A stretch of DNA of 36,393 bases from UHGV virus genome UHGV-0268593, one strand, 5' to 3'. Source of the stretch: a virus. Under the pieces are notes generated by a model. That model was not told where the DNA came from and did not search any database. It saw only the letters and a list, made by a program, of their open reading frames with translations. Of the stretch, positions 1,539 through 32,465 are shown in pieces; position 1 is the first letter of the stretch, and each line of letters starts with the position of its first letter. The position numbers and the translations under genes were made by a program.

Positions 1539-2320
1539 GCTGCTTCCCTCCGTTCCGGGAAGATATCCAAATCTATCCCATACGTTCCCGCCCAGTTCAC
1601 CCGGATGAGACCGCTTGGGATCTTTTCAAAAATGGAATATTCATAACCTCGTTCATTAAACAGATTGGATACAGTTCCATTTGTCAGATATTTATATACT
1701 GTCTGCTCTGCGGAATCAATAATCATGTATTCATTGCGTTCCAGTGTGGTTCTGACTTCGTACGGGTATCCGTTGATTAATATCTTCGGATTTGTGCAAG
1801 GTCCGTATATCGTCATCTTAAAATCTGATGCAGAGGGATGGTCAATTTCAAATTCAGCCGTCCCCGCCCGAACATCTGCGAAATCAAAAGGAAAATCAAA
1901 GGGGAAGTCCAGTCCGCTTGCCGCTGTCATCTGACTTTGCGGAAAAAGCTGCTGACTTACCACTGTCATCCATGACAAGGATGGGGCTGTAAAAGTAAGC
2001 TCCACCTCTGCCATATCGAACCCTTTCCAGTTCGACTTCTTTGACTTCTCCACACGGCAGGAGAGAAATGTATCATTGACGTACAATTTTCCATGTACTC
2101 CGAGATCTGCATCTACAGCAAGCACGCTGTACAGTTTTTCCATATTTTTCGCAAGACCTTCCCCGCTGCCATATACATCCACCTGTACCGTCTTCTGATA
2201 TCCGCTTGCAGTCTCATCCCATTCGGAATCATACCAGTCTGCTTCTGCCGTATAATACGGATCAACAAGAAAATTCAGGATCACTCCTTTTGAATTTATG
2301 TAATACGCTTCTCTTATCAT
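1532..2320 (-). CDS. Distal tail protein (Dit, siphovirus tail component)
   Basis: A 262-aa ORF lies directly after the tape measure gene with an ATGA-type overlap. This is the canonical TMP-Dit-Tal order. Confidence 0.65.
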   Translation of the reverse strand: MIREAYYINSKGVILNFLVDPYYTAEADWYDSEWDETASGYQKTVQVDVYGSGEGLAKNMEKLYSVLAVDADLGVHGKLYVNDTFLSCRVEKSKKSNWKGFDMAEVELTFTAPSLSWMTVVSQQLFPQSQMTAASGLDFPFDFPFDFADVRAGTAEFEIDHPSASDFKMTIYGPCTNPKILINGYPYEVRTTLERNEYMIIDSAEQTVYKYLTNGTVSNLFNERGYEYSIFEKIPSGLIRVNWAGTYGIDLDIFPERREAAW

Positions 2321-5300
2321 ATTTTCGGCACCGCTCCTTTCGGCAGTTCCCGGTCTAACCGGGTCGTACCCAGGTAAACCGGTCTGCTCTGCATCTTCTT
2401 AACACCGGCAGCCGTTGCATTCCCTACTTTCGTTGCCAGTTGCGTCAGATCCTCGTCTGAAATCCTCATAGTACTCTGTACGCTCTGCTGATTTATGATC
2501 TTTTCTGTACTCTGCAAGGCAAATGAGCTGGTGATCCTATTTGTATTCACCGCCATCGCCTCCCGCACCCGATTGGACAGATCTGCCATGTCCAGCGAAT
2601 TCAGTGCCGAACGTGCCATTCGTTCTGAAGCCTTTTTTACAGCCGGAATCTGATCGTCAATTCCAAGTGCGAATCCCTTGCCAGAAAAACGCCCCGCTCC
2701 TCGCATTACTTTTGATGGTGAATGAATCCCCAGTACGCTCTTGACTTTTTCATAAGCCGTACTTGCCATCTCTGCCGCTTTTGATGCAGCTTTTCCAACC
2801 CAGTCACCAATTCCACGAACAAATCCTGATCCGAAATTAGACCCGGTATCGTATGAATTAATACTTCCTGCTCCGCTTTTTGCACTGGTAGCAAGGGATG
2901 TTCCTTTTGCCCTTGCATCCCCTGCCTTACTTCCGACAGCAGAAGAATATGCTGTTCCGAACGATTTTCCAGTACTTCCCGGATTCACCGATCCAGCTCC
3001 ACGCTTCGCACTGTCTGCCAGTCCTTTTCCTCTTGTCAACAGCTTCCCGACAAAACTGCCGATCGCTGTATCGAAAAATCTTCCAAATGCACTACCGGTC
3101 GAGGTCGGGTCAACAGCCCCTGCTCCTCTTTTTGCAGCTTCTGCATTCGCTTTTCCCTGTTGTTCCGAAACTGACAGCTGTGATCCGATTCCTTCATTAA
3201 AAGAAGTCATCAACCCTGATCCGATTTCTTTCGTATCTCCTACTGATCCCCGCATAGCATCAAGCAGCCGGGAGATCACGCCAGTACCGGAAGAAGTAAG
3301 TTCCTCCTGACCTTCGTTCAATCCTTCAACCGCTCCCGGCCAGACATACGAAAAGATTTCTTTCACCGCACGGGACGGACTGTGGACATCAAGAGTCGTG
3401 ATCAGGCTTTGCAGGAATGCATCCGCACCTTGCTCTGCCGGATCAACCAGCGTTTCAAACCCTTCCAGTCCTTCCAAAGCTCCATACCACGCCTGTGACC
3501 ACGTCTCTTTAGTTTTTTCGTCCAGTCCTGAAAATCCTTTCAGAAAGCTTTCCATTCCTGCCTGCGCCTCAGTGCTCAGCGTACCGGATATCTTTGCCTG
3601 TGCCATAGCCGCTACAAGTTTTGCAGAGCCATCCTTACCGGCATTTTTTAATATTTCCTTGATCTGATCTGCACCAGTTCCGACCTGATTCAGGGCAATC
3701 CCCATTGCCTCCGTCAAGCCATCTTTGGTCTGCTGGGTTAATTGCATTGCTCCATCTTTTTCAGCGGAAAAAATACTGGTAAGCTTATCTGTCATTGCAC
3801 TGGCCTGCTCGATGGCTGCTTCTGATCCAATCTCCAAAGTAGTGTCAATTCCGCTCTGAATTTCTGCCAGTGCAGAGTTGATCGTATCAGTATTTCCACT
3901 CATTGCTGCCTCTGTCAGGCTACTGTAATCGGAGATGACTTTCTGATTATCCTGCATCGCCGCATTGGCAGCGTCAAAGTTTGCCTGCAATTCTTCCAGT
4001 CCACTACCTGCTTTTTCAAGCTTTTCTTTCAGTTCTCCGTACTTTTCAGTATTCCGCACAATAGCTTCGCCCTGGGCATCATACCCCATTACTACAGCAT
4101 TTGCCGATTCTGCTTCAAGTTCCTTCTCAAGTTCTGCGATCTTGCTTTTTTTGCTACTAAGCTTTTCGTAAGCATCTGCCAGTTCAGCCGCCTTGTCTGC
4201 CTGCTCTTTCATTGCATCCGCATAGTCCGACTTCATGGAGTCAAGAACGGCTTCTGCTTTTTTTGCCGCAATCAGATCGTAGACAGATTTCTTCAAGTCG
4301 CTGTAGTTCTGAATCAGTCCATCGTTCAGGCTGATTTCTACACCTAACGCACTGGACAGCTCACCTGTGATATACGCTGCCCTTGCCTCCTGTCCTGCCT
4401 GCACTTTTCCATTCGCATCAACAATCTTTTGCAGTTCTCCCCACAATGCTTCTGCATTGTCGATCTCAGATGTGGCTGCCTGAATATTTTTCTGCCTTGC
4501 CGCTGCCTTTTCGTTAATACTGTCAATTTCATCCTGTGCTGCCTGGATATTTTCCTTTTGTGCCTCCGTCAGCCGATCTGTTGATGCCGCTTCATCATCC
4601 GTCAGCAGGATTGCTGTTCCGATACAGGCTGCCAGTGCCGCCCCTGCGGTAACAAGCAGACCGATTGGATTTGATGCCATAGCAGCGTTCAGGGCTGTCT
4701 GTGCTTTCGTCCACAGTCCGGTCAGGGCAGTCGTGACTCCGATCTGACCGCTATAGACTCCCATCAGCGTTTCCCGGAGTGTCAGACCGCCGTTAGATGC
4801 TACAAGCTGTAAAGCATTTGCTTTTTCCATCGCAGTCAGCCTTGCCAGGGCTGCTGCATTCAGATTCGTCTGATTCTTGCTGACCTTGGTGGCTGTGCTG
4901 TACAGCTTCAATGCTGTCGTAGCTCCAGCCACCAATGGAGCAATCACACCTAGATTTCCACTCAGCAGGTCGATGGCTTTTGTGACCGGTGGAAGTGCCA
5001 CTTTCGCAAGCGTTCCTGCCGCTTTGGTCAGATTCTTGAATACAGATACTGCTTTTTTCCCGGCTGATTTCAATCCACCTGAATTGAGCGACTCTGACAA
5101 GGCTTCTACTGCATCCTGTGCCGGTTTCTTTAATTCTGCCGGCAGAAGGCTTGCAAGTCCTCCTGCTATTGATTCTGCTACTTCTGCTGCGGCTGTCAGA
5201 AGTCTTCCTTTATTTCCTGACACGCCGGAAATGAAAGATTCGATGAAATCAACCGCTGTATCCACCATTTCCGGTGCGTGGGATGCTGCATCCACGGCAA

Positions 5301-6459
5301 AATCTGCAAAGATGTTTCCGGCCTCTTTTACAGCCGCTTTCAGACCACCATTTTTAAAGGCGTCCGTCATATCGCCTACAGCCTGCGTGGCTTGCACGGC
5401 TGTATTTTTCAGTGGCGTATCAAGAGATTCATAAATTTCAATGCCGAGACCCTCAAGACTGGATTTCAAAATCGTAACCGCACCTTCAAGGTTGTCCTGC
5501 ATTGTCTCTGACATATTCGCAGCCGTTCCGTCAGCGTTCTTTATGGCAGATGCAAGCTTGTCAAAATCACCCTGCGATGCATTTACGATAGCCAGCAATC
5601 CTGACATAGCCTCCTGCCCTCCAATTGCCGCTGCCGCCGCTGCCTGCTCATCCGCGGGCAACCCCTGAAGGGAATCCCGCATATTCTCCATGACTTGCAT
5701 CAGGGTTTTCATGCTGCCATCTGCGTTTTTCATGGATATATCATATTTGTCCAATGCCGCTGATGCTTCTTTTGGCGGCTTGGCCAGTCTGGTCAGCACA
5801 CTCCTGAGGGCAGTACCTGCCTGGGTTCCCTTGATTCCCGAGTTTGCCATCAGTCCGATAGCCTGAGACAGGTCTTCAATGTTATACCCCAACGCTCCTG
5901 CTACTGGTGCAGCGTACTTAAATGTTTCACCCATCATAGAGACGTTGGTGTTCGCATTACTGGATGCTGCCGCAAGGACATTTGCGAAATGGGTGGAGTC
6001 CGATGCAGCCAGTCCCATCGCTGTCAGTGCATCTGTAACGATATCAGAAGTCGTTGCAAGATCTTCACCGGATGCCGCCGCAAGATCCATGATCCCCTCA
6101 ATACCGGACAGCATATCCTGTGTCTTCCATCCCGCCATAGCCATGTATTCCATAGCCTGAGCAGATTCAGAGGCACTGAACTTCGTCTTTGCCCCCATTT
6201 CCTTTGCCTTATCAGTCAGTTTCTGCAGTTCGTCCCCTGTAGCTCCTGAAATGGCTGATACTTTCGACATCTCAGATTCGAAGCTGGCACCGACCTTTAC
6301 AGCTGCCGCTGCTGCACCTCCAAGAGCAGTGGACACTGCACTCACCGCTGTTGCTACGGTTTTCAGACCGGTTTTCGCAAGCTTTCCCATTTTGCTTAAA
6401 TCTTTTTCAATACCGGATGTGTCCAGTCCGGTATCAATAATCACTTTTCCGTCTGCCAA
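2317..6459 (-). CDS. Tail tape measure protein
   Basis: 1380 aa, Ala/Gly/Ser-rich with long helical stretches, placed between the tail chaperones and Dit. Internal tandem repeats sit near the C-terminus. Confidence 0.9.
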   Translation of the reverse strand: MADGKVIIDTGLDTSGIEKDLSKMGKLAKTGLKTVATAVSAVSTALGGAAAAAVKVGASFESEMSKVSAISGATGDELQKLTDKAKEMGAKTKFSASESAQAMEYMAMAGWKTQDMLSGIEGIMDLAAASGEDLATTSDIVTDALTAMGLAASDSTHFANVLAAASSNANTNVSMMGETFKYAAPVAGALGYNIEDLSQAIGLMANSGIKGTQAGTALRSVLTRLAKPPKEASAALDKYDISMKNADGSMKTLMQVMENMRDSLQGLPADEQAAAAAAIGGQEAMSGLLAIVNASQGDFDKLASAIKNADGTAANMSETMQDNLEGAVTILKSSLEGLGIEIYESLDTPLKNTAVQATQAVGDMTDAFKNGGLKAAVKEAGNIFADFAVDAASHAPEMVDTAVDFIESFISGVSGNKGRLLTAAAEVAESIAGGLASLLPAELKKPAQDAVEALSESLNSGGLKSAGKKAVSVFKNLTKAAGTLAKVALPPVTKAIDLLSGNLGVIAPLVAGATTALKLYSTATKVSKNQTNLNAAALARLTAMEKANALQLVASNGGLTLRETLMGVYSGQIGVTTALTGLWTKAQTALNAAMASNPIGLLVTAGAALAACIGTAILLTDDEAASTDRLTEAQKENIQAAQDEIDSINEKAAARQKNIQAATSEIDNAEALWGELQKIVDANGKVQAGQEARAAYITGELSSALGVEISLNDGLIQNYSDLKKSVYDLIAAKKAEAVLDSMKSDYADAMKEQADKAAELADAYEKLSSKKSKIAELEKELEAESANAVVMGYDAQGEAIVRNTEKYGELKEKLEKAGSGLEELQANFDAANAAMQDNQKVISDYSSLTEAAMSGNTDTINSALAEIQSGIDTTLEIGSEAAIEQASAMTDKLTSIFSAEKDGAMQLTQQTKDGLTEAMGIALNQVGTGADQIKEILKNAGKDGSAKLVAAMAQAKISGTLSTEAQAGMESFLKGFSGLDEKTKETWSQAWYGALEGLEGFETLVDPAEQGADAFLQSLITTLDVHSPSRAVKEIFSYVWPGAVEGLNEGQEELTSSGTGVISRLLDAMRGSVGDTKEIGSGLMTSFNEGIGSQLSVSEQQGKANAEAAKRGAGAVDPTSTGSAFGRFFDTAIGSFVGKLLTRGKGLADSAKRGAGSVNPGSTGKSFGTAYSSAVGSKAGDARAKGTSLATSAKSGAGSINSYDTGSNFGSGFVRGIGDWVGKAASKAAEMASTAYEKVKSVLGIHSPSKVMRGAGRFSGKGFALGIDDQIPAVKKASERMARSALNSLDMADLSNRVREAMAVNTNRITSSFALQSTEKIINQQSVQSTMRISDEDLTQLATKVGNATAAGVKKMQSRPVYLGTTRLDRELPKGAVPKI
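2765..3145 (-). repeat. Three tandem ~42-aa repeats inside the tape measure gene
   Basis: The protein shows AKRGAGAVDPTSTGSAFG.., AKRGAGSVNPGSTGKSFG.. and AKSGAGSINSYDTGSNFG... The DNA shows a recurring gctcc(g/a)c.ttttgc about every 126 nt. Coordinates are approximate. Confidence 0.6.
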
Positions 6460-6464
6460 TCATC

Positions 6465-7082
6465 TCACCATCCTTTTAGCAGCTCGCTTACATCTTCGCC
6501 CCGTTCCAGTGCCTCCTCCAAAGCTTTCAATTTCGCCTTATCCGGTGCTTTTTCTGTATCTAGTCCGTAATATTCCTGCATCGCCTGATAGAATCTCTTT
6601 TGATCCTTTGATAAACCTTTTGCCGAGAGATCCAGTGTCCGGTACTCCATGATCTTCTGGAATCTTGTATCTCCTCCGAGATTTTCCAGTAAAATCATAA
6701 ATTTCCACCAGTGCATCTCCTCTGTCTGCAGGTCGATTCCATACTGCTGGATAAATGCCGCATAGATCAGATCGGCATCTACCTCAAAATCAAACGCCTG
6801 CTTGCTGTTGATCCCGGCGATCTTCCGTGGAAAATGCTTACGCTCCGGCTCTCTCCCACAGGAGAAAAACCACAGCATCTTGTCAAAATGTTCTTCTGTA
6901 TACCAGGTGTACTGACCGTAAAAAAGCCTGAGCAATCTCGTCATTTCGTCCTCAGTCAGCTCTCTTCCTGCATCCTGAAGGATTTTCTGACAACGTAAAA
7001 CGGTGCGGAAATCCCAATGGATCGGACATTCCACACCGCTAATGGTCAGACTTACCGGAAAAGGCTCTGTAAGGGAACTCAT
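6465..7082 (-). CDS. Tail assembly protein (Phage_Gp15-like, second chaperone-type gene)
   Basis: A 205-aa ORF sits between the major tail gene and TMP, with an ATGA overlap to the upstream chaperone ORF. Confidence 0.55.
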   Translation of the reverse strand: MSSLTEPFPVSLTISGVECPIHWDFRTVLRCQKILQDAGRELTEDEMTRLLRLFYGQYTWYTEEHFDKMLWFFSCGREPERKHFPRKIAGINSKQAFDFEVDADLIYAAFIQQYGIDLQTEEMHWWKFMILLENLGGDTRFQKIMEYRTLDLSAKGLSKDQKRFYQAMQEYYGLDTEKAPDKAKLKALEEALERGEDVSELLKGW

Positions 7083-7405
7083 TCAGCCCCTTTCATTCCC
7101 AGTCGCTCTTTTACTGCTCTATACCTCTCACACTGTCGGATCTGTTCGTTAAGCAGTGCTTCATAAGCTTCCAGACATAAGAGGTGATCGTGACCCGTTC
7201 CGCATACTTTTTCCCCTGTGCCTTCCCCAAAAGTCACATCGAAAAGGTGCTTAACTGTATCACACTGCTGTCTGATCGCATCTGGTTCCGTTCCTGTATC
7301 TCCAATCTTTGAGATTTCTTCCAGTTCTTTCAGATATGCCTTTTTACCCTCCTCAAAATCCGGGTCAAAAAATGAAAAATTTAATGTAACTCCGTTAATC
7401 TGCAT
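7079..7405 (-). CDS. Tail assembly chaperone
   Basis: Start moved to the internal ATG at 7405 (MQINGVTLNF...), which follows a GGAGGAG SD. The ORF is small, acidic, and lies just after the major tail gene. Confidence 0.5.
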   Translation of the reverse strand: MQINGVTLNFSFFDPDFEEGKKAYLKELEEISKIGDTGTEPDAIRQQCDTVKHLFDVTFGEGTGEKVCGTGHDHLLCLEAYEALLNEQIRQCERYRAVKERLGMKGAE

Positions 7406-7492
7406 TGTCTTTCTCCTCCATCTGTTCAAATAAATCTTTTTCTGCTTCGTCCGCTACAGCCTCACCAACTGAAGCATTATCAGTGAGGGAGA

Positions 7493-8023
7493 TTATTTTC
7501 CCTCTGTAAATGCCTTGGTTGCTGTGTTGAACGTACCCTTTACCCAGTCAGTCTTGCCAAGCAGGTTGCCGGATCCCTGAATTTCACCATCGTTATCCTT
7601 AAATTCAGAAATCTCAACCGCAACTTTTCTGCGTTTTGCTTCATAAGTTCCGGCTGAGCCGCTCACCGGTTTGTCCAGGTATACCTTCACGTAAAATGTA
7701 TCTGCCTCCACTCCGGTCTTTTCGTTCTCGCCGATCTCCGAAATGTAAGCGATTGCCGGTTCACTCTGGATCAGATCGAACTCAAGCGGTGCTGTCCATT
7801 CATAACCGCCAATGCTCTGTGTTGCACTTTTCTGATTGACGTATCTCTTTGACGTAGTCTGTGCGGACGGTGAATCATCCAACTGGGTCACACCAATTCC
7901 GAGAAGCTCATATTTCGGGGAATCAGATCCTCCTGTAACATCAATGTAATCTGCACGCTGGTAACGCTGCGTTACACCAGTGTCTTTTGCTGCTTCAAAA
8001 ATCTGTAAATTCATTCTTTTCAT
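7493..8023 (-). CDS. Major tail protein
   Basis: Internal ATG at 8023 with a GGAGGT SD. The N-terminus is MKRMNLQIF-EA, and the position before the chaperones matches a major tail gene. Confidence 0.65.
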   Translation of the reverse strand: MKRMNLQIFEAAKDTGVTQRYQRADYIDVTGGSDSPKYELLGIGVTQLDDSPSAQTTSKRYVNQKSATQSIGGYEWTAPLEFDLIQSEPAIAYISEIGENEKTGVEADTFYVKVYLDKPVSGSAGTYEAKRRKVAVEISEFKDNDGEIQGSGNLLGKTDWVKGTFNTATKAFTEGK

Positions 8024-8027
8024 TGCC

Positions 8028-8456
8028 TTACCTCCGTTTGTAATATAAAAAGCGGCACTGAATGCGGTACTGGCATTTCGTGCCTTCATTATCGTATAAA
8101 TAACCGCCTGTCGTAGCCTGAATAGACTTACTCGTGAGATTTCCCGACAGTGCCGGAAGTCTTCCCTGCTCCGTACATTCATCCAGCCAGTCAGAGAATT
8201 TTTCGTAAAATTCCGCCGTGTCCTTGTTGCTTTCTTCTCCGTACCATTCCCGGGAACAAAGAGAAAATACCATCTGCCGGATCGTATCTCCGTTCGTATA
8301 CCGTCTGACAATCGGGTCTGCCGGAGCAAGCTCCAGACTATACGCTGTTGCATCCTCTCCCAGCAGATCCACGTTCACGATCGGGAACATCTGTTCAAAC
8401 TCTTCCAGGAACGGACACCCAGCTATAAATTCAGCGACGTTTGTTGCTACGCTCAT
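8028..8456 (-). CDS. Tail terminator/completion-type protein
   Basis: ATG at 8456 overlaps the upstream stop (ATGA) and follows a GGAGGG SD. A GTG at 8519 is an alternative start. Confidence 0.4.
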   Translation of the reverse strand: MSVATNVAEFIAGCPFLEEFEQMFPIVNVDLLGEDATAYSLELAPADPIVRRYTNGDTIRQMVFSLCSREWYGEESNKDTAEFYEKFSDWLDECTEQGRLPALSGNLTSKSIQATTGGYLYDNEGTKCQYRIQCRFLYYKRR

Positions 8457-8782
8457 CCTGCTTTCCCTCCACAAAAACTGGCTACTGCCTTTACAATCTC
8501 CGGCCCTCTGTCTGCCCACATCCGTTCTGCCCAGTGCGAACCCCGAAGACCGTCTCCTTTGTGTTCATAATACTGCCGCCTTGCATAAGGTGCATTGTAT
8601 GTGATTGTGGAAATTGCTTCTGTGGCATCCGTCTTCAATCGTCCAGTCAGCCGTGGAACATAAGGATCGGACAGCCGCCTGACTTCACTTGTAAAAAATC
8701 TCTGCCCTTTTCCATTCTTGTTCAGGCTTCTCCTGAGCAAGATCTGATCTTTCGGATCTAACTGCATTCTGATTACCATCAC
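8453..8782 (-). CDS. Head-tail joining protein (HK97 gp10-like)
   Basis: A 109-aa ORF with GTG start lies within the connector cluster between capsid and major tail. Confidence 0.45.
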   Translation of the reverse strand: MMVIRMQLDPKDQILLRRSLNKNGKGQRFFTSEVRRLSDPYVPRLTGRLKTDATEAISTITYNAPYARRQYYEHKGDGLRGSHWAERMWADRGPEIVKAVASFCGGKAG

Positions 8783-9183
8783 GCACCTCCACTGATTCTG
8801 ATATGCGGGGATGATCCGATAAAGTTCTCGGAATGGCTCTTCACCACCCCGACTACTCCGCTATACTGCTTTTTCAGGTCATCAATCCCTGTGACTTCTC
8901 CACCGCACCATTCTCCCTGGATAAAGAGATCCCCATTCTGAACAGTCCAGCAAGATCCTTTCTGCCCTGTCGCAAATTGATCCACAGTTTTCCAGTCTGC
9001 ACACTGATCAAATGGGATGCGGATCATATGCTCGTCCGAGCTGATCAGGCCACCCTGTGATGGCGTAGTCTTCCTGCTGACGTGATACCATGCCCAGTCA
9101 ATCCGGTGCGGCAGATACACTATCTTTTTCTGCTCCTTATCCGGGTAACGGTTAAAGAGCGTGATCACTGCATTTGTAAGCAT
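8779..9183 (-). CDS. Head-tail adaptor / head closure-type protein
   Basis: It belongs to the connector cluster. The start is uncertain (M at 9183 or further upstream). Confidence 0.35.
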   Translation of the reverse strand: MLTNAVITLFNRYPDKEQKKIVYLPHRIDWAWYHVSRKTTPSQGGLISSDEHMIRIPFDQCADWKTVDQFATGQKGSCWTVQNGDLFIQGEWCGGEVTGIDDLKKQYSGVVGVVKSHSENFIGSSPHIRISGGA

Positions 9184-9565
9184 CACAATATCCCACCTTC
9201 CTGGACAGCCATCCCAGCGGAAGCAGATAGGTCCGTGCAACTTCGTAAGCTTTGCGGGATGCGACCGCTTCTGCCGTCTCTCCGTCCACCTGCTCGTTTA
9301 CATAAGTCACACTGTATCCGTCCGTATTTTCCGACTTTACAGATCCGTTTCCCTGCTGATTTTTCAAGTCGCAAGAATAATAAATCTCTGCAACTGCACA
9401 TACAGCATCTTTTACGGTATCGTTTTCGCAAGCGAAAATATCTCCATGCATATAAGTCAGATGCCTTATATAGGCTTCTGCTTTTTTCTCTGCTTTTGCA
9501 AATCTTTCAAGCGGAATCAGTTCACCACCGTATTCAGACGAATAATAGAAAGAATCCACGTACAT
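9152..9565 (-). CDS. Head-tail connector (gp6-like, DNA packaging) protein
   Basis: Internal ATG at 9565 follows an AAGGAGC SD and begins just after the capsid stop. Confidence 0.45.
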   Translation of the reverse strand: MYVDSFYYSSEYGGELIPLERFAKAEKKAEAYIRHLTYMHGDIFACENDTVKDAVCAVAEIYYSCDLKNQQGNGSVKSENTDGYSVTYVNEQVDGETAEAVASRKAYEVARTYLLPLGWLSRKVGYCDAYKCSDHAL

Positions 9566-9582
9566 ATCGCCTTGCTCCTTCC

Positions 9583-10563
9583 TTATTCTCCCGCTTTCAG
9601 GATCGCAAACGGGCATCTCTTAGTCTTATCTTTTGCAAGAGCATTGATTGGATTCGGGATTTCCCATCCAAGACGCATCACCGCACGAAGAGCAATCATA
9701 TCATTCTGCATCAGGTTGTATGCGATAGTTCCATCGGTGTTCTGAATCACGCCTTCCGTGAATAACTTGAATGTAATATCCTGTCTGATGGAATATACAA
9801 GCTGAGAGAAGTCTCCTGAAATCATCAGTGCCTTTGATTTGTCAAACGCTCCGTTGTTTGGGAAATTCATCGGAGAGCCATCTAAAGCATACTGCGTTGT
9901 TCCCTGCAGATCCTGCTTGAACAGCGGATCACCATTCGCGTTCTTCAACCCCCTGAGCTTTGCCCTCATGGAGATATCTGCCATGTGACCATTTACAAAG
10001 TAGCCAGATCCCTCAACTTTCGCAATGACGCCATCTTCTGCCATAATCTTGTCGTACAGACTGTCAGATGCTCCGAGTGTTACGACTGCACTCGCCTTTG
10101 TTGCAGTTGCAACCACATCTTCTCTCCATGTTGACGGCTTATTTTCTCCAAAAAGTACCGCTCCATCAATGACTTTTCCAAATGCTTCTGTCACTCTTGG
10201 CCTTACTTCTGCCCAAATATCATATTCCGAATCATCCAATACAGCTTCTGGAATCGGAACAATTACCGCAATTTCTTCCGCAGTGATAAACTTCTTGTCC
10301 CATGCCTGCTTTGCCGTTTTTTTCTGTCCATTGTCGCCATTTACAAAATAAGCGATCGGCAGCATATCCAATACCGGCATCTTGTACTGCTTACTGGTCA
10401 TATTTGCAAGCTTACGCCCTCTCGAAAGGACTGCCGACTGTGCGATTGTTCCCTGAATAATCTCGCTTGCTTCCTGCACCGGGATTAAAGACTCCGCTCC
10501 GGTACGATCGATAATGCTTACGTCATTATCAAAAATTCTTAAATTCATTCTGTTTCTGTTCAT
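9583..10563 (-). CDS. Major capsid protein
   Basis: A 326-aa ORF follows the scaffold gene. The N-terminus MNRNRMNLRIF-DND resembles a Prp cleavage motif. Confidence 0.8.
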   Translation of the reverse strand: MNRNRMNLRIFDNDVSIIDRTGAESLIPVQEASEIIQGTIAQSAVLSRGRKLANMTSKQYKMPVLDMLPIAYFVNGDNGQKKTAKQAWDKKFITAEEIAVIVPIPEAVLDDSEYDIWAEVRPRVTEAFGKVIDGAVLFGENKPSTWREDVVATATKASAVVTLGASDSLYDKIMAEDGVIAKVEGSGYFVNGHMADISMRAKLRGLKNANGDPLFKQDLQGTTQYALDGSPMNFPNNGAFDKSKALMISGDFSQLVYSIRQDITFKLFTEGVIQNTDGTIAYNLMQNDMIALRAVMRLGWEIPNPINALAKDKTKRCPFAILKAGE

Positions 10564-10575
10564 CTTCTACCTCCA

Positions 10576-11181
10576 TCATCTTCTTGCTGCAGCACGGATA
10601 CGTTCATTGATAGAAGCATTCATGCTTCCACCGGCTCCCTCCGAAGAGCTTCCCGAAGACGTAGACACCCGGTACGTGCCACTGCCTGTATATTTCGGGT
10701 TTTCTTTCAAATACTGTTCTGCAGCTTTTTCAAATGTTGTCTTGTCGTTTACCAGTTTCGATACCTTGAACATGACATAATCAAGATCCTCTGTCTTCAC
10801 TCCTTTGCCTGACAGAAATTTCTCGTTTTTCATCTGCTGTACTTCCTTTAGGGCATCGTCACGTTCTTTTTGCAACTTCGCCGTGTCCGGCTGATTCGCT
10901 GCACGTTCTGACTTAAATCTTGTGATCGCTTCTGTGACTTCTTCCTCTGTCATTCCCTGACCACGGAAAAAGCTTGCAAGAGCTGCACGTTCCGACTTGC
11001 TTGCCCTGGCACTTGCAATTTCTTCCAGCTGTTCATAGGTATAAGTTCCGGAATTGGAAGCTCCGGATGCACTTCCAGCGGTTCCCTGACCGCTGTTCCC
11101 AGTCCCGGCATTTCCGCTCTGTCCGTTAGAGCCAGCTCCGCTGCCGTCCTCAAAAAGCTGTAACATCATTCTTTTCTTCAT
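10576..11181 (-). CDS. Scaffolding protein
   Basis: 201 aa with a Gly/Ser-rich region followed by a charged helical region, placed directly upstream of the capsid gene. N-terminus is MKKRMMLQLF-ED. Confidence 0.7.
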   Translation of the reverse strand: MKKRMMLQLFEDGSGAGSNGQSGNAGTGNSGQGTAGSASGASNSGTYTYEQLEEIASARASKSERAALASFFRGQGMTEEEVTEAITRFKSERAANQPDTAKLQKERDDALKEVQQMKNEKFLSGKGVKTEDLDYVMFKVSKLVNDKTTFEKAAEQYLKENPKYTGSGTYRVSTSSGSSSEGAGGSMNASINERIRAAARR

Positions 11182-11239
11182 TGTTTCTACCTCCGTTTAT
11201 GCTTCGTTGAGCTCCCGAGCTTTTAACGCCTTCACGTTT

Positions 11240-11270
11240 TGGGCAAAAGAAAAACACCCCTCAGGGTGTC
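11240..11270 (-). terminator. Hairpin plus U-tract between the Prp and scaffold genes (terminator/attenuator-like)
   Basis: Stem ACACCC (11254-11259) and GGGTGT (11264-11269) with loop ctca. On the minus strand a T-rich run follows. The stem begins 3 nt after the Prp stop codon. Confidence 0.45.
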
Positions 11271-11272
11271 TC

Positions 11273-11560
11273 CTACAAAAATGTTATACAATTATATTCC
11301 CGGTTGATATCTGTCAATCCGAGAAACCACGAATCTAGCAGCAACTTCCCTCTGTCAGAAAGCCGCTCCCATTCGATCACGGTTCTTCCGCTCCCGGTAT
11401 CTGCCCTGATCCGGTCACCTGTCAGATCATTCAGCGAATTGATCAGGTTGCAGGTGAGAGCGGATACCGCTGCACATGCCCGGTCAATACCATCTGACCC
11501 TTTTCGGCAGGCATGGCCTTTTAATGCAAGCATGTCCTCTCGGACTTTCACCTCAATCAA
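11273..11560 (-). CDS. Prp-like cysteine protease (DUF464 ribosomal-processing protease family, phage form)
   Basis: The motif LKGHACRKGSDGIDRACAAVSAL matches the His/Cys dyad signature GHA...D.vCAavS. The gene sits immediately upstream of scaffold and capsid. Confidence 0.65.
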   Translation of the reverse strand: MIEVKVREDMLALKGHACRKGSDGIDRACAAVSALTCNLINSLNDLTGDRIRADTGSGRTVIEWERLSDRGKLLLDSWFLGLTDINREYNCITFL

Positions 11561-11623: not shown

Positions 11624-12073
11624 CTATGGATAGTCGTTTGCCATCATTTTCTCGAGATACCATTTTTTTAATTGTTTTTCATTGTCAATCTGTCGCTCTA
11701 TCATTTCGATTTCGTTATCGATCATTCTGATCTGTTCTACAATGTATCGCTGGTCTTTCTCGTTGTCATGCCAGTCTAAAATAAAATTTACGAGAGTACT
11801 AAACTGCAGATTGATTGTAGTCCTATATCTTCTTAAAAAATCTGGAAATACTCTTTTGATAGCTATGTAAAGGTAATCACAATCCACTTCTTTTTTCGGT
11901 TCAAACACTGCAAATCGGCTGTCTATGTTCCCAGCTTCCTTGATCTGTCCGACGAACTCATCGACTGCACTCAATTTAATAAAGCATGTACCGGCTTTAT
12001 ATTTCTTTCCTGATACAGCTCTCTCAACAATGCACACTTCACTGATATTTCTTTTTCTGCATCTTAATTTCAT
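11624..12073 (-). CDS. Type I HsdS-like specificity protein with a single target-recognition domain
   Basis: A TRD-like core (YLYIAIK...LVNFILDWH..EQIRMIDNEIE, a conserved helical repeat) overlaps the MTase gene through ATGA. The region is AT-rich. Confidence 0.55.
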   Translation of the reverse strand: MKLRCRKRNISEVCIVERAVSGKKYKAGTCFIKLSAVDEFVGQIKEAGNIDSRFAVFEPKKEVDCDYLYIAIKRVFPDFLRRYRTTINLQFSTLVNFILDWHDNEKDQRYIVEQIRMIDNEIEMIERQIDNEKQLKKWYLEKMMANDYP

Positions 12074-13371
12074 GTCCAGCTCAACTCCAACTGATCATAT
12101 TGTTTCTTTTCTGTTTTCCTTCTTTGCTTTGGATTTAAAATGATCTTATGCATCTCAATGGCATTCATATCCTCAGCGTTTCCAGTTAAATCCTGCAGCA
12201 TTTTATATAGCTCGTCTTTAACTTTTTTCTCTTCTTCGTCAATTTCTCTAAGATTCGTCAAAATCTTTCGTACATCTGGCAAAGGTTCATGCACGAAGCT
12301 GTCTACATACCTTGGTATGTTCAAATTGAAATCATTCTTTTCAATTTCCGAATAACTCGTAATATGCGAGTATCTCTCCACTTCTTGTCTGTTTAAAAAA
12401 GTATCTACAACTTTACCGGTCTGCTGTTCTGTCATATCGTTTTGTGCAGATTTTTTTATGAAATCTTTGCTCGCATCTATAAAAAGTATGTCCGGAGAAT
12501 CATATTGCAAAATTAAAACGAAAACCGGAATACTTGTATTTAAGAACAACTTATCCGGAAGTCCTATTACCGCATTGATTAAGCGCTCTTGCACTAACCA
12601 TTTTCGGATATCTCCTTCACCTGCCCCACGGAATAAAACACCATGCGGAAGAATTGCGATCAGTCGCCCGCCTCTGTTTAGATGCTCTAATCCACGTAAT
12701 ATGAATCCATAATCTGCTTTACTTTTCGGTATTTTATGTCCCATGATTCTCATCTCATCCGCCTCCGGAAATTTCATGGAATACGGTGGATTCATGATTA
12801 CATTATCAAAACATCCTGCTTCTTGTCGTTCCTGTAAGGATACGATACTGATACCGCCCCGCTCTTCAAGTAAGTAGGTTTCCTGTACTGTATTCCTCAG
12901 ACAATCCGCCTTGCTTATCGTGCCTTGCATACCGTTCATACATGCGTCCAGAATGGCAAATGGAATCGTCCTTTCAGAAAATTCCTGTTCGTTAATTTCA
13001 ATCCCACGTTTTAATGCAGCCATTTTACTCAGAGCTCCTGTTCCGGAACACATATCCAAACAAGTACCGTCAATCATTAGATCGGCTACAATAGAGCAGA
13101 TGCAATCGGGTGTAAAATCTTGCTTTAAACTTTTTCTATCTCCCTGCTCTTCCTGGAACATATCCCGAATATCGCAAGAAATTTGTTCTTTAATCTGCGT
13201 GATAGTCTTTTCTGCATCCGGTGATAATAACATCTCCATTATTTTGTCCGGAAGCCGGTAAGATTCTTTTACGTCAAAAAACTCCTGAAGTGTCATACCA
13301 CAACCTCTCCTCGCCTTAAAAATGGGTACAAAAATACCACTCACTCTCTCGAATGGGTGGTATCTATTCAA
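12070..13371 (-). CDS. N6-adenine DNA methyltransferase (gamma class, HsdM-like)
   Basis: Motif I is LDMCSGTGALS and motif IV is VIMNPPYS, with an FTPD N-terminal region. No restriction subunit is adjacent. Confidence 0.8.
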   Translation of the reverse strand: MNRYHPFERVSGIFVPIFKARRGCGMTLQEFFDVKESYRLPDKIMEMLLSPDAEKTITQIKEQISCDIRDMFQEEQGDRKSLKQDFTPDCICSIVADLMIDGTCLDMCSGTGALSKMAALKRGIEINEQEFSERTIPFAILDACMNGMQGTISKADCLRNTVQETYLLEERGGISIVSLQERQEAGCFDNVIMNPPYSMKFPEADEMRIMGHKIPKSKADYGFILRGLEHLNRGGRLIAILPHGVLFRGAGEGDIRKWLVQERLINAVIGLPDKLFLNTSIPVFVLILQYDSPDILFIDASKDFIKKSAQNDMTEQQTGKVVDTFLNRQEVERYSHITSYSEIEKNDFNLNIPRYVDSFVHEPLPDVRKILTNLREIDEEEKKVKDELYKMLQDLTGNAEDMNAIEMHKIILNPKQRRKTEKKQYDQLELSWT

Positions 13372-13621
13372 TTTGTTTCATTTCATCTTCTATTTCTTCT
13401 CTTTTCCAACCTTCCTCTGAGAGAATATCTAAGATTTCTTCCGGCTCACACAATATCTCTTCCAATTTCCAAATTCTTTCACGCAAGTGTGTTCTTCTGA
13501 CGGCAAATTCTATTTCTTCATCAGAATCCCCTAGCCTTCTAAAAACATCTTTCATTTCCTCATCTTCAATTTCCTGAAGTTTTTTATCGATATCAGGTGT
13601 ATCTGGGTCAAACATTGTCAT
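13364..13621 (-). CDS. Small highly acidic protein (possible DNA mimic)
   Basis: 85 aa, very rich in D/E, overlapping the MTase start. Confidence 0.4.
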   Translation of the reverse strand: MTMFDPDTPDIDKKLQEIEDEEMKDVFRRLGDSDEEIEFAVRRTHLRERIWKLEEILCEPEEILDILSEEGWKREEIEDEMKQIE

Positions 13622-15519
13622 TATAATCCCTCCATGATTTCTTCGAGTATTTCACCAAAGATTCTTGCTGCTTCTCGTGGTTTTTTACTAGTCATATATT
13701 CAGAAAAACATTCCGCAAAGAACTCTCGCTCATTTTTGTAAGCGTATTCTGAAATATGCTTTGTGATGAATTCCTTTTTAGAAAAATCTAACGCATCGTT
13801 CAGTTCTCGTCCTTTGTAGCCCATTCTAGTCCAGTCTGCACGCTCCGCACGTGTATAATCAAAATATCCTAATCTTTGTAAGACTTCTCTCCTAACTGCT
13901 ACGCTCGTCCTTGTTACACCATATTTTTCTATCTTTCCTCCATATATACCTTTCCATGTAAGGTAACCATCTAACTGATGTCCCATTTCATGAACGATTA
14001 TACTGTCGGCGGTAGTTCCAAGTGGAGAAAATCCAATTTTTATATAATGCTCATATTTTTTCTTTAACTTTTCGTAATCCGAAAAATAGGAACTAAGTTT
14101 AATAACACCATGCATAGAACTGCTTGAGGCAATCGACTTCAAATCTGAATCATATATGATTTTATTTGTATATCCTTTGAGCTGCGGAAATTTGTCAAAT
14201 ACTTTCTTAATTCCATTATATACCGATTTTCTTGATTTTTCATCAACTTTACTGAAATCAATTTTATCCTTACCGATACCCATTACTTTTGATAATTTTG
14301 ACTTTTCAAACAAGTTATCTGTACTGGAGGCTTTTATAACCATTTTTCTGGATATTTTTCCAGGTGCAACCCTGCCTTTCATATCCAAATAAATTCTTTC
14401 ACGTTCCTGTTTAAGTCCCATTTTCTTCGAGAACCTTGCATACTCATCTAACTGTCCTTGGTACTTACATCGAGCTAACATAACATCATCCGGATCAGCA
14501 CCGCCTTTTTGCAATAGCTGCACCTTTTCACGCTGTGCCCGCATAGCAGTTTCCATTTGACGCTGCCGTTGTTTTGCTTCGTAAAGAGTGTATTCTTTAC
14601 CACGGAACTCGGTCGGCTCGCTTTCTTTCCGATTCTGTTCGTCTAGCCAGTCATCCGTATAAGCTCGTACCGATACACCGGGAACAAAAGGGAAGTAAGT
14701 ATGGTAGCAGTTTGCTCCACATAGTCCGGTTACTGTACCGAGTCCACAGACATCATACAATTGCTGTTGACTCCACACTCTGCCCTGCCATATCGTATGC
14801 GTTGGTCTCGCCCCTGCGTGCCATTCCACTTCAAAATATTCCGTACCGAGCTTTTCAGCATTATATTCCGCAATCTTCCCAGAAAGCTGCGTCAGTCCGG
14901 TCATGACAGCCCGTCTTGCTGCGACCTCGATTCGATTTGCATACCCCGATGAATATTCTATCTGCCGAAGTCCGCTATTCGTGAGCTGAGTGACTACCCG
15001 CCGGAGAACTGTATTATAATCAAATGCTCCTGTGACAATGTCCATGCAGGCATTATCGAGATACCCACTGTATACCTGTGACAATGGAGTTAATACCTTT
15101 CTGCCACCGTAATCCAAATAAAAGCCTAGAGATCTTGTAATATTTTCCAAGTCCTCAAGGCTTTGCTTTTTGATAGCTGATGTCACCTGTATCAGATGTT
15201 CATTTTCTTCAAAAGGTATGTATTCCGCATTGATCTGTTCATAGAGGTCCTTGTTCCTGACGTATTCCCAGTCGATCACTTTGTCGTACAGTTCAAACAT
15301 TTCCGGGTAAGAAGCATTCAGAGTGTCTTTCAATGCATTTTCAATGTCCTCCGAAGAATACCCTAGTATTTTTAACCGGTTAATCTGCCAGTCTGCTGTG
15401 CTGGTGATTTCGCCCGTCTTCTTAATTCTCCGAACAATATCCTGCATGATCCTGACTTCAAGATCTGCGTATCTTGCCGCAATCTTGCTGGCGATCTTTT
15501 CCTTGTATTCATTTCTCAT
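13621..15519 (-). CDS. Minor head protein (MuF/SPP1 gp7 family) fused to a C-terminal anthrax-lethal-factor-like zincin domain
   Basis: 632 aa placed right after the portal gene. The C-terminus carries HEMGH followed by NEREFFAECF, the HExxH plus ExxFAExF gluzincin pattern. Confidence 0.75.
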   Translation of the reverse strand: MRNEYKEKIASKIAARYADLEVRIMQDIVRRIKKTGEITSTADWQINRLKILGYSSEDIENALKDTLNASYPEMFELYDKVIDWEYVRNKDLYEQINAEYIPFEENEHLIQVTSAIKKQSLEDLENITRSLGFYLDYGGRKVLTPLSQVYSGYLDNACMDIVTGAFDYNTVLRRVVTQLTNSGLRQIEYSSGYANRIEVAARRAVMTGLTQLSGKIAEYNAEKLGTEYFEVEWHAGARPTHTIWQGRVWSQQQLYDVCGLGTVTGLCGANCYHTYFPFVPGVSVRAYTDDWLDEQNRKESEPTEFRGKEYTLYEAKQRQRQMETAMRAQREKVQLLQKGGADPDDVMLARCKYQGQLDEYARFSKKMGLKQERERIYLDMKGRVAPGKISRKMVIKASSTDNLFEKSKLSKVMGIGKDKIDFSKVDEKSRKSVYNGIKKVFDKFPQLKGYTNKIIYDSDLKSIASSSSMHGVIKLSSYFSDYEKLKKKYEHYIKIGFSPLGTTADSIIVHEMGHQLDGYLTWKGIYGGKIEKYGVTRTSVAVRREVLQRLGYFDYTRAERADWTRMGYKGRELNDALDFSKKEFITKHISEYAYKNEREFFAECFSEYMTSKKPREAARIFGEILEEIMEGL

Positions 15520-15520
15520 A

Positions 15521-16936
15521 TCACTCCATCACCTGATTTTGCTCGGGAAGATTCTGACGAGCCTGCTCAACCGTTTCTCCATACCACTTCGCCCGATATT
15601 CTTCCAACCTCATCACGCCCATGCTCACATCCTGCCGATCCTGCTGACGTTCCGAATCCTTATCCTCAATGATGGAATCATCAAAATCTATCGTGATTTC
15701 TGTATCAGGATCCAGTACATTCCCCGTGACCTGACCGAGCCGGATAATAATTCTGATTAATCTCTTTAGCACGTCTTCCAGAATGATCTCATGCTTTTTC
15801 AGCATCCGGTACATGTCTGAATTTTCAGAAATAATTTCCGTAGCTGTTTTGGCTCCAATCCCGTTAAATTGATACCGGTTCGTGCCAAATCCACACTTTA
15901 AGGAAAGATAATTCAGATCGTCATTGATCGCCTTGCTGTGTGCTTCTACCCGAAGCTGCATATCAACTTCTTTGATAAGCCCTTCACCTTTTTCGTTATA
16001 ATCATCCGGCAGCTTGTAAAATACCGCATCCTCCGGGTCAAATGCCGGTGTCCCGTCATCATTGGTCAGCAATTCAGGTGCAACAAAAATCCGCTTTCGC
16101 CCAAGATCAAACTCATTACAATACGAATCATATTCAGTATCCAATTTTCTCAACGTATCAATAGCATTCGCAAAAATAGCAATTCCCATCGGGTTGCTCG
16201 TATCTGCATTATTGGTTATGTTTAAACGGTCAAGCACAAACTGCGGCTCTGTCGATCCGGTTTGAACAGTAGCTGTCAAATTCTTAAATGGTCGCAATTC
16301 TTTCCATTCTTTCTCATCAACTTCTGTTCCTGAAGACTCACCGGATCCACATCTGAGAACTTTATTTTCTATAATGTAATTTCCATCTTCTGCTTTTCGA
16401 TGATGCTGCAAATGCACATATTTCTTTCGATTGGCTGTATGCGGAAAAGCAAAAATACACTCCGAAACTTCTCCATTCTTCCAGCTCACTGGAAAAATAT
16501 TGGGTGCATCCACATATTCAATTCCAATCTTTCCTGATAGTACGGAGCCATCCTCGCTCACTTCCGTATCATACAAATACGGAATGTATGCAACTGTTCC
16601 AGTGTATGCCTTACGCTCCTGGAAGTCATTTCCGATCACCAGAAAATGGTTTTCATCTAATATTTCCTGCACAAATTTTTGTGTAGCATCATCTTCCAAT
16701 GTGATCATAACCTTTTCGTTTAGCAGCAGGTCTGCAATATCCTCAGAAAGCTTTTTCGCCATCCCCATGCTCTTTCGCCTGCATCGGTTATACGTTCCAC
16801 GCCCAGTATACGCCTTGTAAAAAGAAAACCCTCTTACATTGGAGTTGTACCAGCTGATCCATTCGTTTATCTTTTGATAAAATGACGTATCCACAGTGTC
16901 TATTCCTGCTTTCCTGAAATAACTAAAAATGTTCAC
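15521..16936 (-). CDS. Portal protein
   Basis: 471 aa between TerL and the MuF gene, with an ATGA overlap to TerL. Confidence 0.85.
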   Translation of the reverse strand: MNIFSYFRKAGIDTVDTSFYQKINEWISWYNSNVRGFSFYKAYTGRGTYNRCRRKSMGMAKKLSEDIADLLLNEKVMITLEDDATQKFVQEILDENHFLVIGNDFQERKAYTGTVAYIPYLYDTEVSEDGSVLSGKIGIEYVDAPNIFPVSWKNGEVSECIFAFPHTANRKKYVHLQHHRKAEDGNYIIENKVLRCGSGESSGTEVDEKEWKELRPFKNLTATVQTGSTEPQFVLDRLNITNNADTSNPMGIAIFANAIDTLRKLDTEYDSYCNEFDLGRKRIFVAPELLTNDDGTPAFDPEDAVFYKLPDDYNEKGEGLIKEVDMQLRVEAHSKAINDDLNYLSLKCGFGTNRYQFNGIGAKTATEIISENSDMYRMLKKHEIILEDVLKRLIRIIIRLGQVTGNVLDPDTEITIDFDDSIIEDKDSERQQDRQDVSMGVMRLEEYRAKWYGETVEQARQNLPEQNQVME

Positions 16937-18291
16937 CCCTCATCACCTCCTTCATCTATTGGCAGCCAATGCCTTATCCTGCTCCACGCTCCCATCACCG
17001 CGTACCGGATCGCATCCATGCAGTGATCATCCATTTTTACTGGCACTTCCTTACCTCTTTCAATAGATTTTTTATCATATTCATAAGTTCCAAATTCCCG
17101 GTCTGCATTCTCCTGACTGGGATCAATCGACATCACCTCGAACGAAAGTGCTTTTTGCACTCTGCTAATGCCAAGAGCAACACTGTTATCTGCATCACGC
17201 AACTTCACAGAATATTCTAGGTTTCTCGTTGCTCTCCTGACCTCTTCCGCAAGCCCTTTTGCTGATGGATCCAGGAACAGATAAAAAACTGATGTCCCAT
17301 ATTTTTTCCTGATGTTTTTTGTAAAATCCACAAAGTCCTGAGCATATTCTGACGGACTTTTCTGCCGCCCGGAATCACGCCCACTGTGGTAGTATTCTCC
17401 AAGTCCGGGGAATTTCTTGCGGTACAGATCTAGTCCGAAAGCTTCAAAGGTTGTGGCGTTCTGCTGTCCATAGTCGCCACCGATATAGACTCTTTCATAA
17501 ATCCGTTGCGAATCTGCTTTCTGCCTGTGGCGATTGCCGTACATATAGTAGATCAATTCGTCCACACCGATCGCCTCGCCCAGCCAAACCCATCTATACA
17601 TTTTTGGATCAGATTTCTTCATAGCTTCAGCAGATGCAATCAGGTCAGGACCAAGCCAGTCCACCGGCACGTCCCGGTAATCCGTATGAATATGGATGCA
17701 GTCCTCTCGTTTTTCCATCTTCTTGCACCACAAATTGATGGGGGCATTCGGATTCTTTGGAGGATTATAGAGATAGATCATCTGAAATCCACCTTTATTT
17801 CCACGAACAAACGTCGCTTCAATATTGGTCAGTTCATCTTCTCCCTCTCCATCGTCAAAAAACTCTGTCAACTCATCCAACACAACCAACTTGATTGGCT
17901 TATCTTCATCAATGATACCTTTTGTATCATCGATCCCGTCTGACCCAGCAAAATACATTGTCGTCCCATGCTTTTTATATGTTATTTCCATCGGGGATTT
18001 TGTAATCAGGAATTTACTTTTGGGAATTTCCAACCGATTGATCCCCCTTAGCATTTCTTTGTAGACTGTTTTTCTCAGCTTATTATGGTGTTTTCTTAAA
18101 ACAACAACCGATCCATTCGCATCTGATACAAGCTGATAATCCGATCTTACCGCTGCGTAGCTCGACTTCGTTCCGGCTCTTCCGGAAGTCAGTATAATGT
18201 GCTTAATATGCCGATTATTAAATATCGGCAGGTATTTCGGGATTATTATCTCCGATATCTTCACTTGCTTCTTTCGGTGCGTCATTGACAA
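16933..18291 (-). CDS. terL: Terminase large subunit
   Basis: 452 aa with a Walker A-like motif (LTSGRAGTKS) and nuclease-type acidic motifs, placed upstream of the portal gene. Confidence 0.85.
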   Translation of the reverse strand: MSMTHRKKQVKISEIIIPKYLPIFNNRHIKHIILTSGRAGTKSSYAAVRSDYQLVSDANGSVVVLRKHHNKLRKTVYKEMLRGINRLEIPKSKFLITKSPMEITYKKHGTTMYFAGSDGIDDTKGIIDEDKPIKLVVLDELTEFFDDGEGEDELTNIEATFVRGNKGGFQMIYLYNPPKNPNAPINLWCKKMEKREDCIHIHTDYRDVPVDWLGPDLIASAEAMKKSDPKMYRWVWLGEAIGVDELIYYMYGNRHRQKADSQRIYERVYIGGDYGQQNATTFEAFGLDLYRKKFPGLGEYYHSGRDSGRQKSPSEYAQDFVDFTKNIRKKYGTSVFYLFLDPSAKGLAEEVRRATRNLEYSVKLRDADNSVALGISRVQKALSFEVMSIDPSQENADREFGTYEYDKKSIERGKEVPVKMDDHCMDAIRYAVMGAWSRIRHWLPIDEGGDEG

Positions 18292-32285: not shown

Positions 32286-32465
32286 TTAAAAAACCGCCCC
32301 TTCGCCAAAAGGAGCGGCACTGGAAGCACACGCCAATGTGCTTATCGAATACCTCCGAAGAGATACACTTCAAATCCAATGAATATTGTATCATCTTCGG
32401 ACAGCCACTGCAAGTGGAACACACGTTCCTCGCTGGCTGTTATTTTTATACTAGGAGATGATAAT

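Follow-up and report, generated by a model that had tools for sequence, protein, structure and literature searches.

The virus genome UHGV-0268593 was analysed over its full stretch of 36,393 nt (hereafter the window). It belongs to a temperate siphovirus of Lachnospiraceae, the temperate lifestyle being indicated by the integrase encoded at 32379–33581. The genes considered here all lie on the minus strand, and their order is that of a standard siphovirus morphogenesis module. Within this module, a gene for a Prp-like cysteine protease, a member of the family that processes the N-terminal leader of the ribosomal protein L27, accompanies genes for a scaffold, a capsid and a tail tube protein that begin with L27-like leaders:

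11273–11560, minus strand: Prp-like protease (PF04327)
10576–11181, minus strand: scaffold (phrog_2303)
9583–10563, minus strand: HK97-fold capsid protein (PF05065)
7493–8023, minus strand: tail tube (major tail) protein precursor (PDB sequence match, AlphaFold2/Foldseek fold, phrog_3099)

The Prp-like open reading frame (ORF) encodes 95 aa from a TTG start preceded by an AAGGAG ribosome-binding site, and contains the segments KGHAC and DRACAAVSAL. Its product matches PF04327 in Pfam with 48.7 bits (gathering cutoff 27, E 9.3e-13, profile positions 1–86 of 90) and phrog_4478, annotated as 'peptidase', with E 5e-24. In an alignment with the solved Prps of S. mutans, S. pneumoniae and S. aureus (2g0i, 2idl and 4peo/7kld), GHA and CAAVS stand in register, and His16 (in GHA) and Cys29 (in RACAAVS) are predicted to form the catalytic dyad. 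GHA and the Cys are invariant in the 10 phage Prps compared, which argues for an active protease. The best score against the NCBIfam equivalogs of cellular Prp is 33.6 bits, with a cutoff of 166 for that model (equivalog cutoffs 133–171). This low score, combined with a location in a phage head module between a methylase cassette and the scaffold, indicates that the protein is not the orthologue of the cellular enzyme (S. aureus Prp/YsxB). The Prp stop codon is separated from the scaffold start by 91 nt, and the interval from portal to capsid yielded no match to another prohead protease family (S78, U35 or ClpP type). The initial annotation had placed a Prp-like cysteine protease directly 5´ of the scaffold gene, and the family match, the GHA/Cys dyad and the short gap bear this out.

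A hairpin, GGAGACACCC-UGAG-GGGUGUUUUU, followed by a U-run, begins at the Prp stop codon in this gap (11245–11273, minus strand). It resembles an intrinsic terminator and was seen by direct folding, although it is not listed by a consensus terminator scan; the region as a whole is no more stable than shuffled sequence (z −1.07).

The scaffold precursor (201 aa; phrog_2303 'head scaffolding protein', E 2.5e-41) begins with MKKRMMLQLF↓EDG, in which the arrow marks the predicted cut (F10↓E11; leader at 11152–11181, minus strand). The capsid precursor (326 aa; PF05065, E 5.3e-28; TIGR01554, E 4e-24; phrog_10) begins with MNRNRMNLRIF↓DND (F11↓D12; leader at 10531–10563, minus strand), and its Pfam capsid domain begins at residue 26. 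The N-terminus of the tail tube is MKRMNLQIF↓EAA (F9↓E10; leader at 7997–8023, minus strand). A strong GGAGG ribosome-binding site is found 7 nt 5´ of each of the three proposed ATG codons. All of the sequences and coordinates behind the earlier claim of an L27-like motif at these three N-termini could be verified.

With P1 as the residue before the cut and P1´ as the residue after it, positions P5–P1 read M-L-Q-L-F in the scaffold, N-L-Q-I-F in the tail tube and N-L-R-I-F in the capsid, which has Arg rather than Gln at P3. At P1´ the scaffold, capsid and tail tube carry Glu, Asp and Glu, respectively, and not the small residue (Ala, rarely Ser) of Prp substrates. The scaffold leader is kept as ..[MFYN]LQLF↓[ED]DG in all the head modules of the window's type (type A) examined, and the capsid leader as MNL[RK][ILMVR]F in ~60 related loci, the next residue being mostly E or D (once Q). 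A chance test was carried out with the loose motif L[QRKN][ILFMV]F[ADENSG] over the ~72,800 six-frame residues of the window. Five occurrences were found, three at residues 6–12 of the scaffold, capsid and tail tube and two in non-coding frames; the chance of three such N-termini, estimated from the background rate, is of the order of 1e-7.

The mechanically called tail ORF (7493–8353) extends 110 codons 5´ of the proposed start and overlaps the tail-completion gene. The GGAGG 7 nt upstream, together with homologues called at 176 aa, indicates that translation begins at the ATG at 8023, giving a product of 176 aa. No family was assigned to this protein by Pfam or NCBIfam, and its PHROG family, phrog_3099, is unannotated; the phrog_3099 profile match begins at residue 13. 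A phmmer search of the PDB matched 11ok_A, 'Phage tail tube protein' (E 1.1e-36; window residues 16–175 with chain residues 2–155), and a family profile gave E 7e-57. The AlphaFold2 model, built from a diverse 79-sequence alignment, has a predicted local distance difference test (pLDDT) score of 92.1, with residues 1–10 at ~58 and most of the remainder above 90. Its top Foldseek matches are the tail tubes of 80alpha/SaPI1, monocin and lambda (gpV), with probability 1.0 and template-modelling scores of 0.5–0.64 (query-normalised) and 0.57–0.74 (target-normalised). The gene lies between tail completion (phrog_3266) and the genes for DUF6673, Gp15 (PF06854) and a 1380-aa tape measure protein. By sequence match, modelled fold and gene position, the identification as a siphovirus tail tube (major tail) protein, already made in the initial annotation, is confirmed.

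A survey of the 120 closest cluster representatives of the tail tube (at least 69% identical) found an L27-like leader in 116. In 73 of the 120 it has the form MKMNLQFFAE, with a core (MNLQFF↓A) identical to that of the L27 leader of Eubacterium rectale (MLNMNLQFF↓AHKK; PMC9405229, Table 2), a member of Lachnospiraceae that stands in this comparison for the L27 of the actual host. Prophage copies of the tail gene are present in genomes of Blautia, Mediterraneibacter, Faecalimonas and Lachnoclostridium. A leader on a major tail protein had been described as unusual, which does not hold within this subfamily.

In the wider family, represented by 150 members of 50%-identity clusters, about 8 have a leader and about 140 are leaderless. 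The leaderless homologues, such as phiCD38-2 gp12 (MAGMETIQRYRVADY), P0094, L016, L054, the L043 group and PDB 11ok, begin 2–6 residues past the predicted cut (window residues 12–16). The C. difficile phage phiCD38-2 and the C. perfringens phage vB_CpeS-1181 have homologous tail tubes with no leaders, and no Prp. Homologous tail proteins without the motif had been named beforehand as a finding that would speak against Prp-dependent tail maturation. Such proteins do exist (phiCD38-2 gp12, L016, the L043 group and most of the 50%-identity representatives), and the pattern is read here as that of a removable add-on. Since the leaderless homologues start near the predicted mature N-terminus, the extension appears dispensable for the fold; the sequences thus support a tail leader that is added to the fold rather than part of it.

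Some tail tube homologues carry other N-terminal extensions that are unlike L27 (MGSSEVTRVMAAAVAAGTKGG.. and MSNNGVTRTAAMTAEVGAG..). They were seen in L042–L049, L051 and L074 (tail start ~7941, 16-kb loci), in L054 (7950) and in L017 (7908), the last despite having Prp and leader-bearing head proteins.

The tail module is mosaic, being found with at least five different head modules. Type-A heads always have leaders on scaffold and capsid and always a Prp gene directly 5´ of the scaffold; leaders are absent from head types B, C and D. The phage Prps include a window-like subtype (type A) and a short-loop subtype (type B, GHAxxPVVCHGISA), and all subtypes exceed the Pfam threshold and keep GHA and the Cys. 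In the dereplicated co-occurrence table, whose counts are not phylogenetically independent, Prp lies immediately 5´ of the scaffold in 15 of the 15 head modules with leaders, as it does in all the loci collected with Prp as anchor. An acidic P1´ on scaffold and capsid was considered as a mark of Prp-encoding phages and set aside as uninformative, since every type-A head has both. The contrast that proved informative lies among phages whose heads lack leaders, in their tail leaders.

The table holds 29 distinct loci of this kind. Phage Prp is present in all five with an acidic tail leader, F↓E (L005, L015, L076, L078 and L079), and in none of the 24 in which the tail leader is F↓A, F↓S or absent (Fisher estimate ~8e-6, unweighted and uncorrected for phylogeny). 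Two Prp subtypes and two head types are represented among the five, in which the tail tube is the sole leader-bearing ORF found. L005 is nearly identical to the window in its methylase, Prp and tail genes; its scaffold and capsid have been swapped for leaderless ones, with Prp retained. Furthermore, look-ups of P0012 and P0059 both matched the association between Prp and acidic tail leader that had been predicted beforehand.

In the type-B Prp phages, two extra genes lie directly 5´ of Prp in the head module (L076, 3353–4189; L078, 3182–4137), one Tad2-like (PF11195) and one a 110-aa ORF with an HExxH motif (RHEIIHA).

As far as can be read from the predicted sites, the leaders co-vary within genomes:

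Window: scaffold F↓E, capsid F↓D, tail tube F↓E
L050: scaffold LQLL↓A, capsid LQLL↓A, tail tube LQLL↓A
L067: scaffold LQLF↓A, capsid LQLF↓A, tail tube IQFF↓A
Acutalibacter phage Fontainebleau: scaffold LQLF↓D, capsid LQLF↓D, tail tube LQLF↓D
Dorea phage DO134P1: scaffold NLQLF↓A, capsid GLQVF↓T, tail tube GLQVF↓S

Leaders are carried by three unrelated tail-tube families, namely that of the window, PF06199 (DO134P1) and PF04630 (phi13).

To our knowledge, 80alpha is the single model in which Prp is known to process phage proteins; the enzyme there is that of the host, and the substrates are head proteins only. The processing of its capsid and scaffold by the host Prp was reportedly described by Wall in 2015. 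The capsid (gp47) and scaffold (gp46) of the Staphylococcus aureus phage 80alpha are cleaved by the host Prp (PMC5744158, PMC9405229), in line with the initial annotation, which referred to Prp cleavage of both. Mutants of 80alpha with uncleavable capsid and scaffold are viable, the scaffold leader being needed for assembly and its cleavage not (PMC5744158). It has also been remarked in passing that the major tail protein of phi13 carries a Prp motif, and that Prp is apparently associated with 'ribosomes, procapsids and tails' (Kizziah 2017, PMC5744158). Prps are highly substrate-specific, with P1–P3 as the main determinants; cleavage is lost when the P3 Gln is replaced by Ala or Glu, and the C. 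difficile Prp fails to cut the S. aureus peptide (PMC9261936). This narrow specificity offers a plausible rationale for a matched phage enzyme. Within the searchable literature, outside the scope of which Wall 2015 lay, neither an experimental follow-up of the phi13 remark nor a phage-encoded Prp with tail substrates was found.

It is proposed here, as a fairly probable explanation of these sequence patterns, that the phage-encoded Prp removes L27-mimicking leaders from the scaffold, capsid and tail tube. These three abundant, self-assembling proteins would be made as precursors, each with a leader of 9–11 residues that mimics the Firmicute L27 extension (a basic patch, then [M/N]-L-[Q/R]-[I/L]-F). 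Prp would most likely cut after the Phe, at F10↓E11 (scaffold), F11↓D12 (capsid) and F9↓E10 (tail tube), leaving N-termini equivalent to those of the leaderless homologues. The acidic P1´, compared with the Ala/Ser of host L27, suggests that the phage's own divergent Prp would do the cutting rather than the host enzyme. An enzyme of its own would free head and tail maturation from the specificity of the host Prp. The uncleaved leader would plausibly hold the tube subunit or the scaffold in an assembly-incompetent or chaperoned state. The suggestion of Prp-dependent tail maturation made in the initial annotation gains comparative support from the add-on nature of the leader, from the co-variation and from the contrast of 5/5 with 0/24; the motif on the phi13 tail had been noted already in 2017, and the cleavage itself is a prediction.

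Several observations weigh against this proposal. Every Prp site listed for L27 and 80alpha (PMC9405229) carries Ala or Ser at P1´, so that a cut before Glu or Asp is without precedent and the scissile bond could lie elsewhere. The co-occurrence counts share ancestry and are therefore not independent. The Prp-positive phages L032, L035, L038 and L052 have canonical F↓A tail leaders, which the host enzyme could serve. In a Prp-anchored sample of 42 distinct phages with the Prp and head type of the window and an identifiable tail tube, this protein is leaderless in 39, and L017 has Prp and head leaders with no recognisable tail leader; the tail would thus be an occasional, not an obligatory, Prp client. 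Cleavage, even if it occurs, may be dispensable by analogy with the 80alpha mutants. Finally, the codons of the leaders are strongly AT-rich (TTA for 17 of the 18 Leu at P4, TTT for 20 of the 20 Phe at P1), with synonymous variation present at N, Q, the P2 Leu and Ala, and some selection at the mRNA level may contribute.

Another explanation, which is unlikely, is that the host ribosomal Prp removes all three leaders. The phage Prp would then be redundant, provide a boost in capacity late in infection, or act on another target (host L27 or another host protein). That phages can rely on the host Prp is indicated by at least 16 distinct related phages with a canonical tail leader core (MNLQFF↓A, NLQLF↓A) and no phage Prp, and processing of 80alpha by the host enzyme is documented (PMC5744158); the F↓A tail leaders kept in the four Prp-positive phages named above point in the same direction. 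However, reliance on the host enzyme does not account for the perfect association of the acidic-P1´ tail leader with phage Prp among leaderless-head phages, nor for the Prp gene immediately 5´ of the scaffold in every leader-bearing head module. The P1´ of L27, always Ala or Ser (PMC9405229), and the narrow specificity of Prps (PMC9261936) also argue against a host enzyme acting on the sites of the window.

It is quite improbable that the leaders stay uncleaved, as permanent chaperone or assembly tags or as an AT-rich 5´ coding boost to translation, with Prp non-proteolytic or unrelated. The need of 80alpha for the scaffold leader and not for its cleavage (PMC5744158) would fit such a role, as would the low synonymous variation of the AT-rich codons at Leu (P4) and Phe (P1), and the leader-bearing proteins are all highly expressed structural proteins. 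However, most homologues match the L27 cleavage motif residue for residue, synonymous variation is present at the other leader positions listed above, and the leaderless homologues show the extension to be dispensable for the fold. In addition, the catalytic His and Cys are invariant in phage Prps, and the co-occurrence of Prp and leaders is hard to explain without an enzyme–substrate relation. That the three similar N-termini arose by chance or from misplaced start codons is hardly credible: a further 110 codons of the tail ORF are open 5´ of the proposed start and one gene in the database (P0003, 200 aa) is called from another start, but a GGAGG stands 7 nt before each ATG, the extra 5´ portion of the tail ORF runs into the tail-completion gene, dozens of loci have kept the leader and the window hardly contains the motif elsewhere.

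If the phage Prp does process the three precursors, a further and more doubtful step can be tentatively suggested. The Prps of gut Clostridia phages might have evolved a specificity orthogonal to that of the host enzyme and accept an acidic P1´, serving as whole-virion maturation proteases under phage control, and the tail leader might act as a propeptide that blocks assembly until its removal licenses tube polymerisation. If true, siphovirus tail tube assembly would thereby have its first described proteolytic checkpoint.

The idea of a Prp motif on a tail protein is already known from phi13 and is not wholly new. What appears new, from the sequences compared, is a phage-encoded Prp accompanied by putative leaders with a non-canonical, acidic P1´ on scaffold, capsid and tail tube. 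The window and its relatives indicate that phages often carry Prp themselves and that its predicted sites need not match that of host L27. Tail tubes of at least three unrelated families can be predicted Prp clients, and in some phages the tail tube is apparently the sole client. Natural swaps provide the same tail with and without a leader, and the same Prp with and without head leaders. A passing remark in the literature becomes in this way a sharply testable hypothesis, for which two cultured phage–host pairs (those of Fontainebleau and DO134P1) are suited. The phage enzymes also bear on Prp as an antibiotic target, since they sample alternative specificities of the same scaffold.

The remaining genes of the morphogenesis module are the following, in the order of their transcription:

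16933–18291, minus strand: large terminase (PF04466)
15521–16936, minus strand: SPP1-type portal (PF05133)
13621–15519, minus strand: minor capsid protein 2 (PF06152)
13364–13621, minus strand: 85-aa ORF (no family match)
12070–13371, minus strand: N6-adenine DNA methylase (PF02384, E 1e-49)
11624–12073, minus strand: 149-aa ORF (no family match)
9152–9568, minus strand: head–tail adaptor (phrog_541)
8779–9240, minus strand: DUF6751 protein (PF20536)
8453–8782, minus strand: minor capsid 2-like protein (PF11114)
8028–8519, minus strand: tail completion (phrog_3266)
7079–7429, minus strand: DUF6673 (PF20378)
6465–7082, minus strand: Gp15 (PF06854)
2317–6459, minus strand: tape measure, 1380 aa (by size and position)

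The methylase and the 149-aa ORF form a cassette (11624–13371, minus strand) inserted within the head module between the 85-aa ORF and Prp; it is also found in L005 and is absent from most related loci. In minor capsid protein 2, PF06152 covers residues 2–363 and is followed by a C-terminal extension of ~270 aa with an HExxH motif (VHEMGH). This extension has a sub-threshold match to PF07737, the anthrax lethal factor domain (E 1.4e-5, 25.4 bits with a cutoff of 27.4), and may, on this sequence match, be a virion-borne metalloprotease domain. The Gp15-like protein contains an internal MTRLLRLFYGQY stretch (residues ~46–57) that fits the loose leader pattern and is kept in relatives; it is treated as a false positive because it is internal and not N-terminal. 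Adjoining the integrase, a 530-aa protein (30693–32285, plus strand) with a C-terminal T5orf172/MUG113 (GIY-YIG-like) domain is encoded within a short plus-strand block of low GC content (0.36) and reversed GC skew.

Among known systems, the HK97-type prohead proteases (S78, U35 and ClpP type) share with the system of the window the proteolytic maturation of an HK97-fold capsid, by removal of a delta-domain or scaffold. Their fold and mechanism are unrelated to those of Prp. They are packaged within the prohead, where they degrade internal domains, and we know of no tail tube protein that they process. The cellular Prp/L27 pair has in common with the window the protease family, the catalytic His and Cys, and a substrate with a short N-terminal extension ending in NLQ[FL][FL]. 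However, the cellular gene belongs to the rplU-prp-rpmA operon of Firmicutes and that of the window to a phage head module, and none of the listed L27s has the acidic P1´ of the predicted substrates.

The phage 80alpha resembles the window in being a siphovirus with a separate scaffold and with an L27-like leader (~10–14 residues) on both scaffold and capsid, in its cut after the aromatic residue of x-L-Q-x-F, and in the protease family involved (Prp, C108). It differs in that it has no Prp of its own and uses the host enzyme, whereas the window encodes a divergent one. Its sites are F↓A, compared with F↓E and F↓D and a capsid P3 Arg instead of Gln in the window. A leader has not been reported on the 80alpha tail tube, unlike that of the window. 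The Staphylococcus prophage phi13 shares precisely this feature, since its major tail protein begins with an L27/Prp motif, MIEKLKQAPRFLKLNLQHF↓ADTG (LKLNLQHF↓A, verified in the sequence). In contrast to the window, the phi13 tail tube belongs to PF04630 with Big_2, its site is the canonical F↓A, and the phage has no Prp, relying on an HK97-type maturation protease for its head.

Parallels are also offered by the cultured gut-Clostridia phages Fontainebleau (ON453893) and DO134P1 (OP172779), for which no processing data were found in the literature. The Prp homologue of DO134P1 (…ISGHANYAACGQDIICAGVTAL…; L083, ~6990–7290, plus strand) is an ORF left unannotated in GenBank OP172779. As in the window, both phages have Prp directly 5´ of the scaffold and leaders on scaffold, capsid and tail tube. 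Fontainebleau differs from the window in having LQLF↓D at all three sites, and DO134P1 in having LQLF↓A, LQVF↓T and LQVF↓S, the last on a tail tube of the family PF06199.

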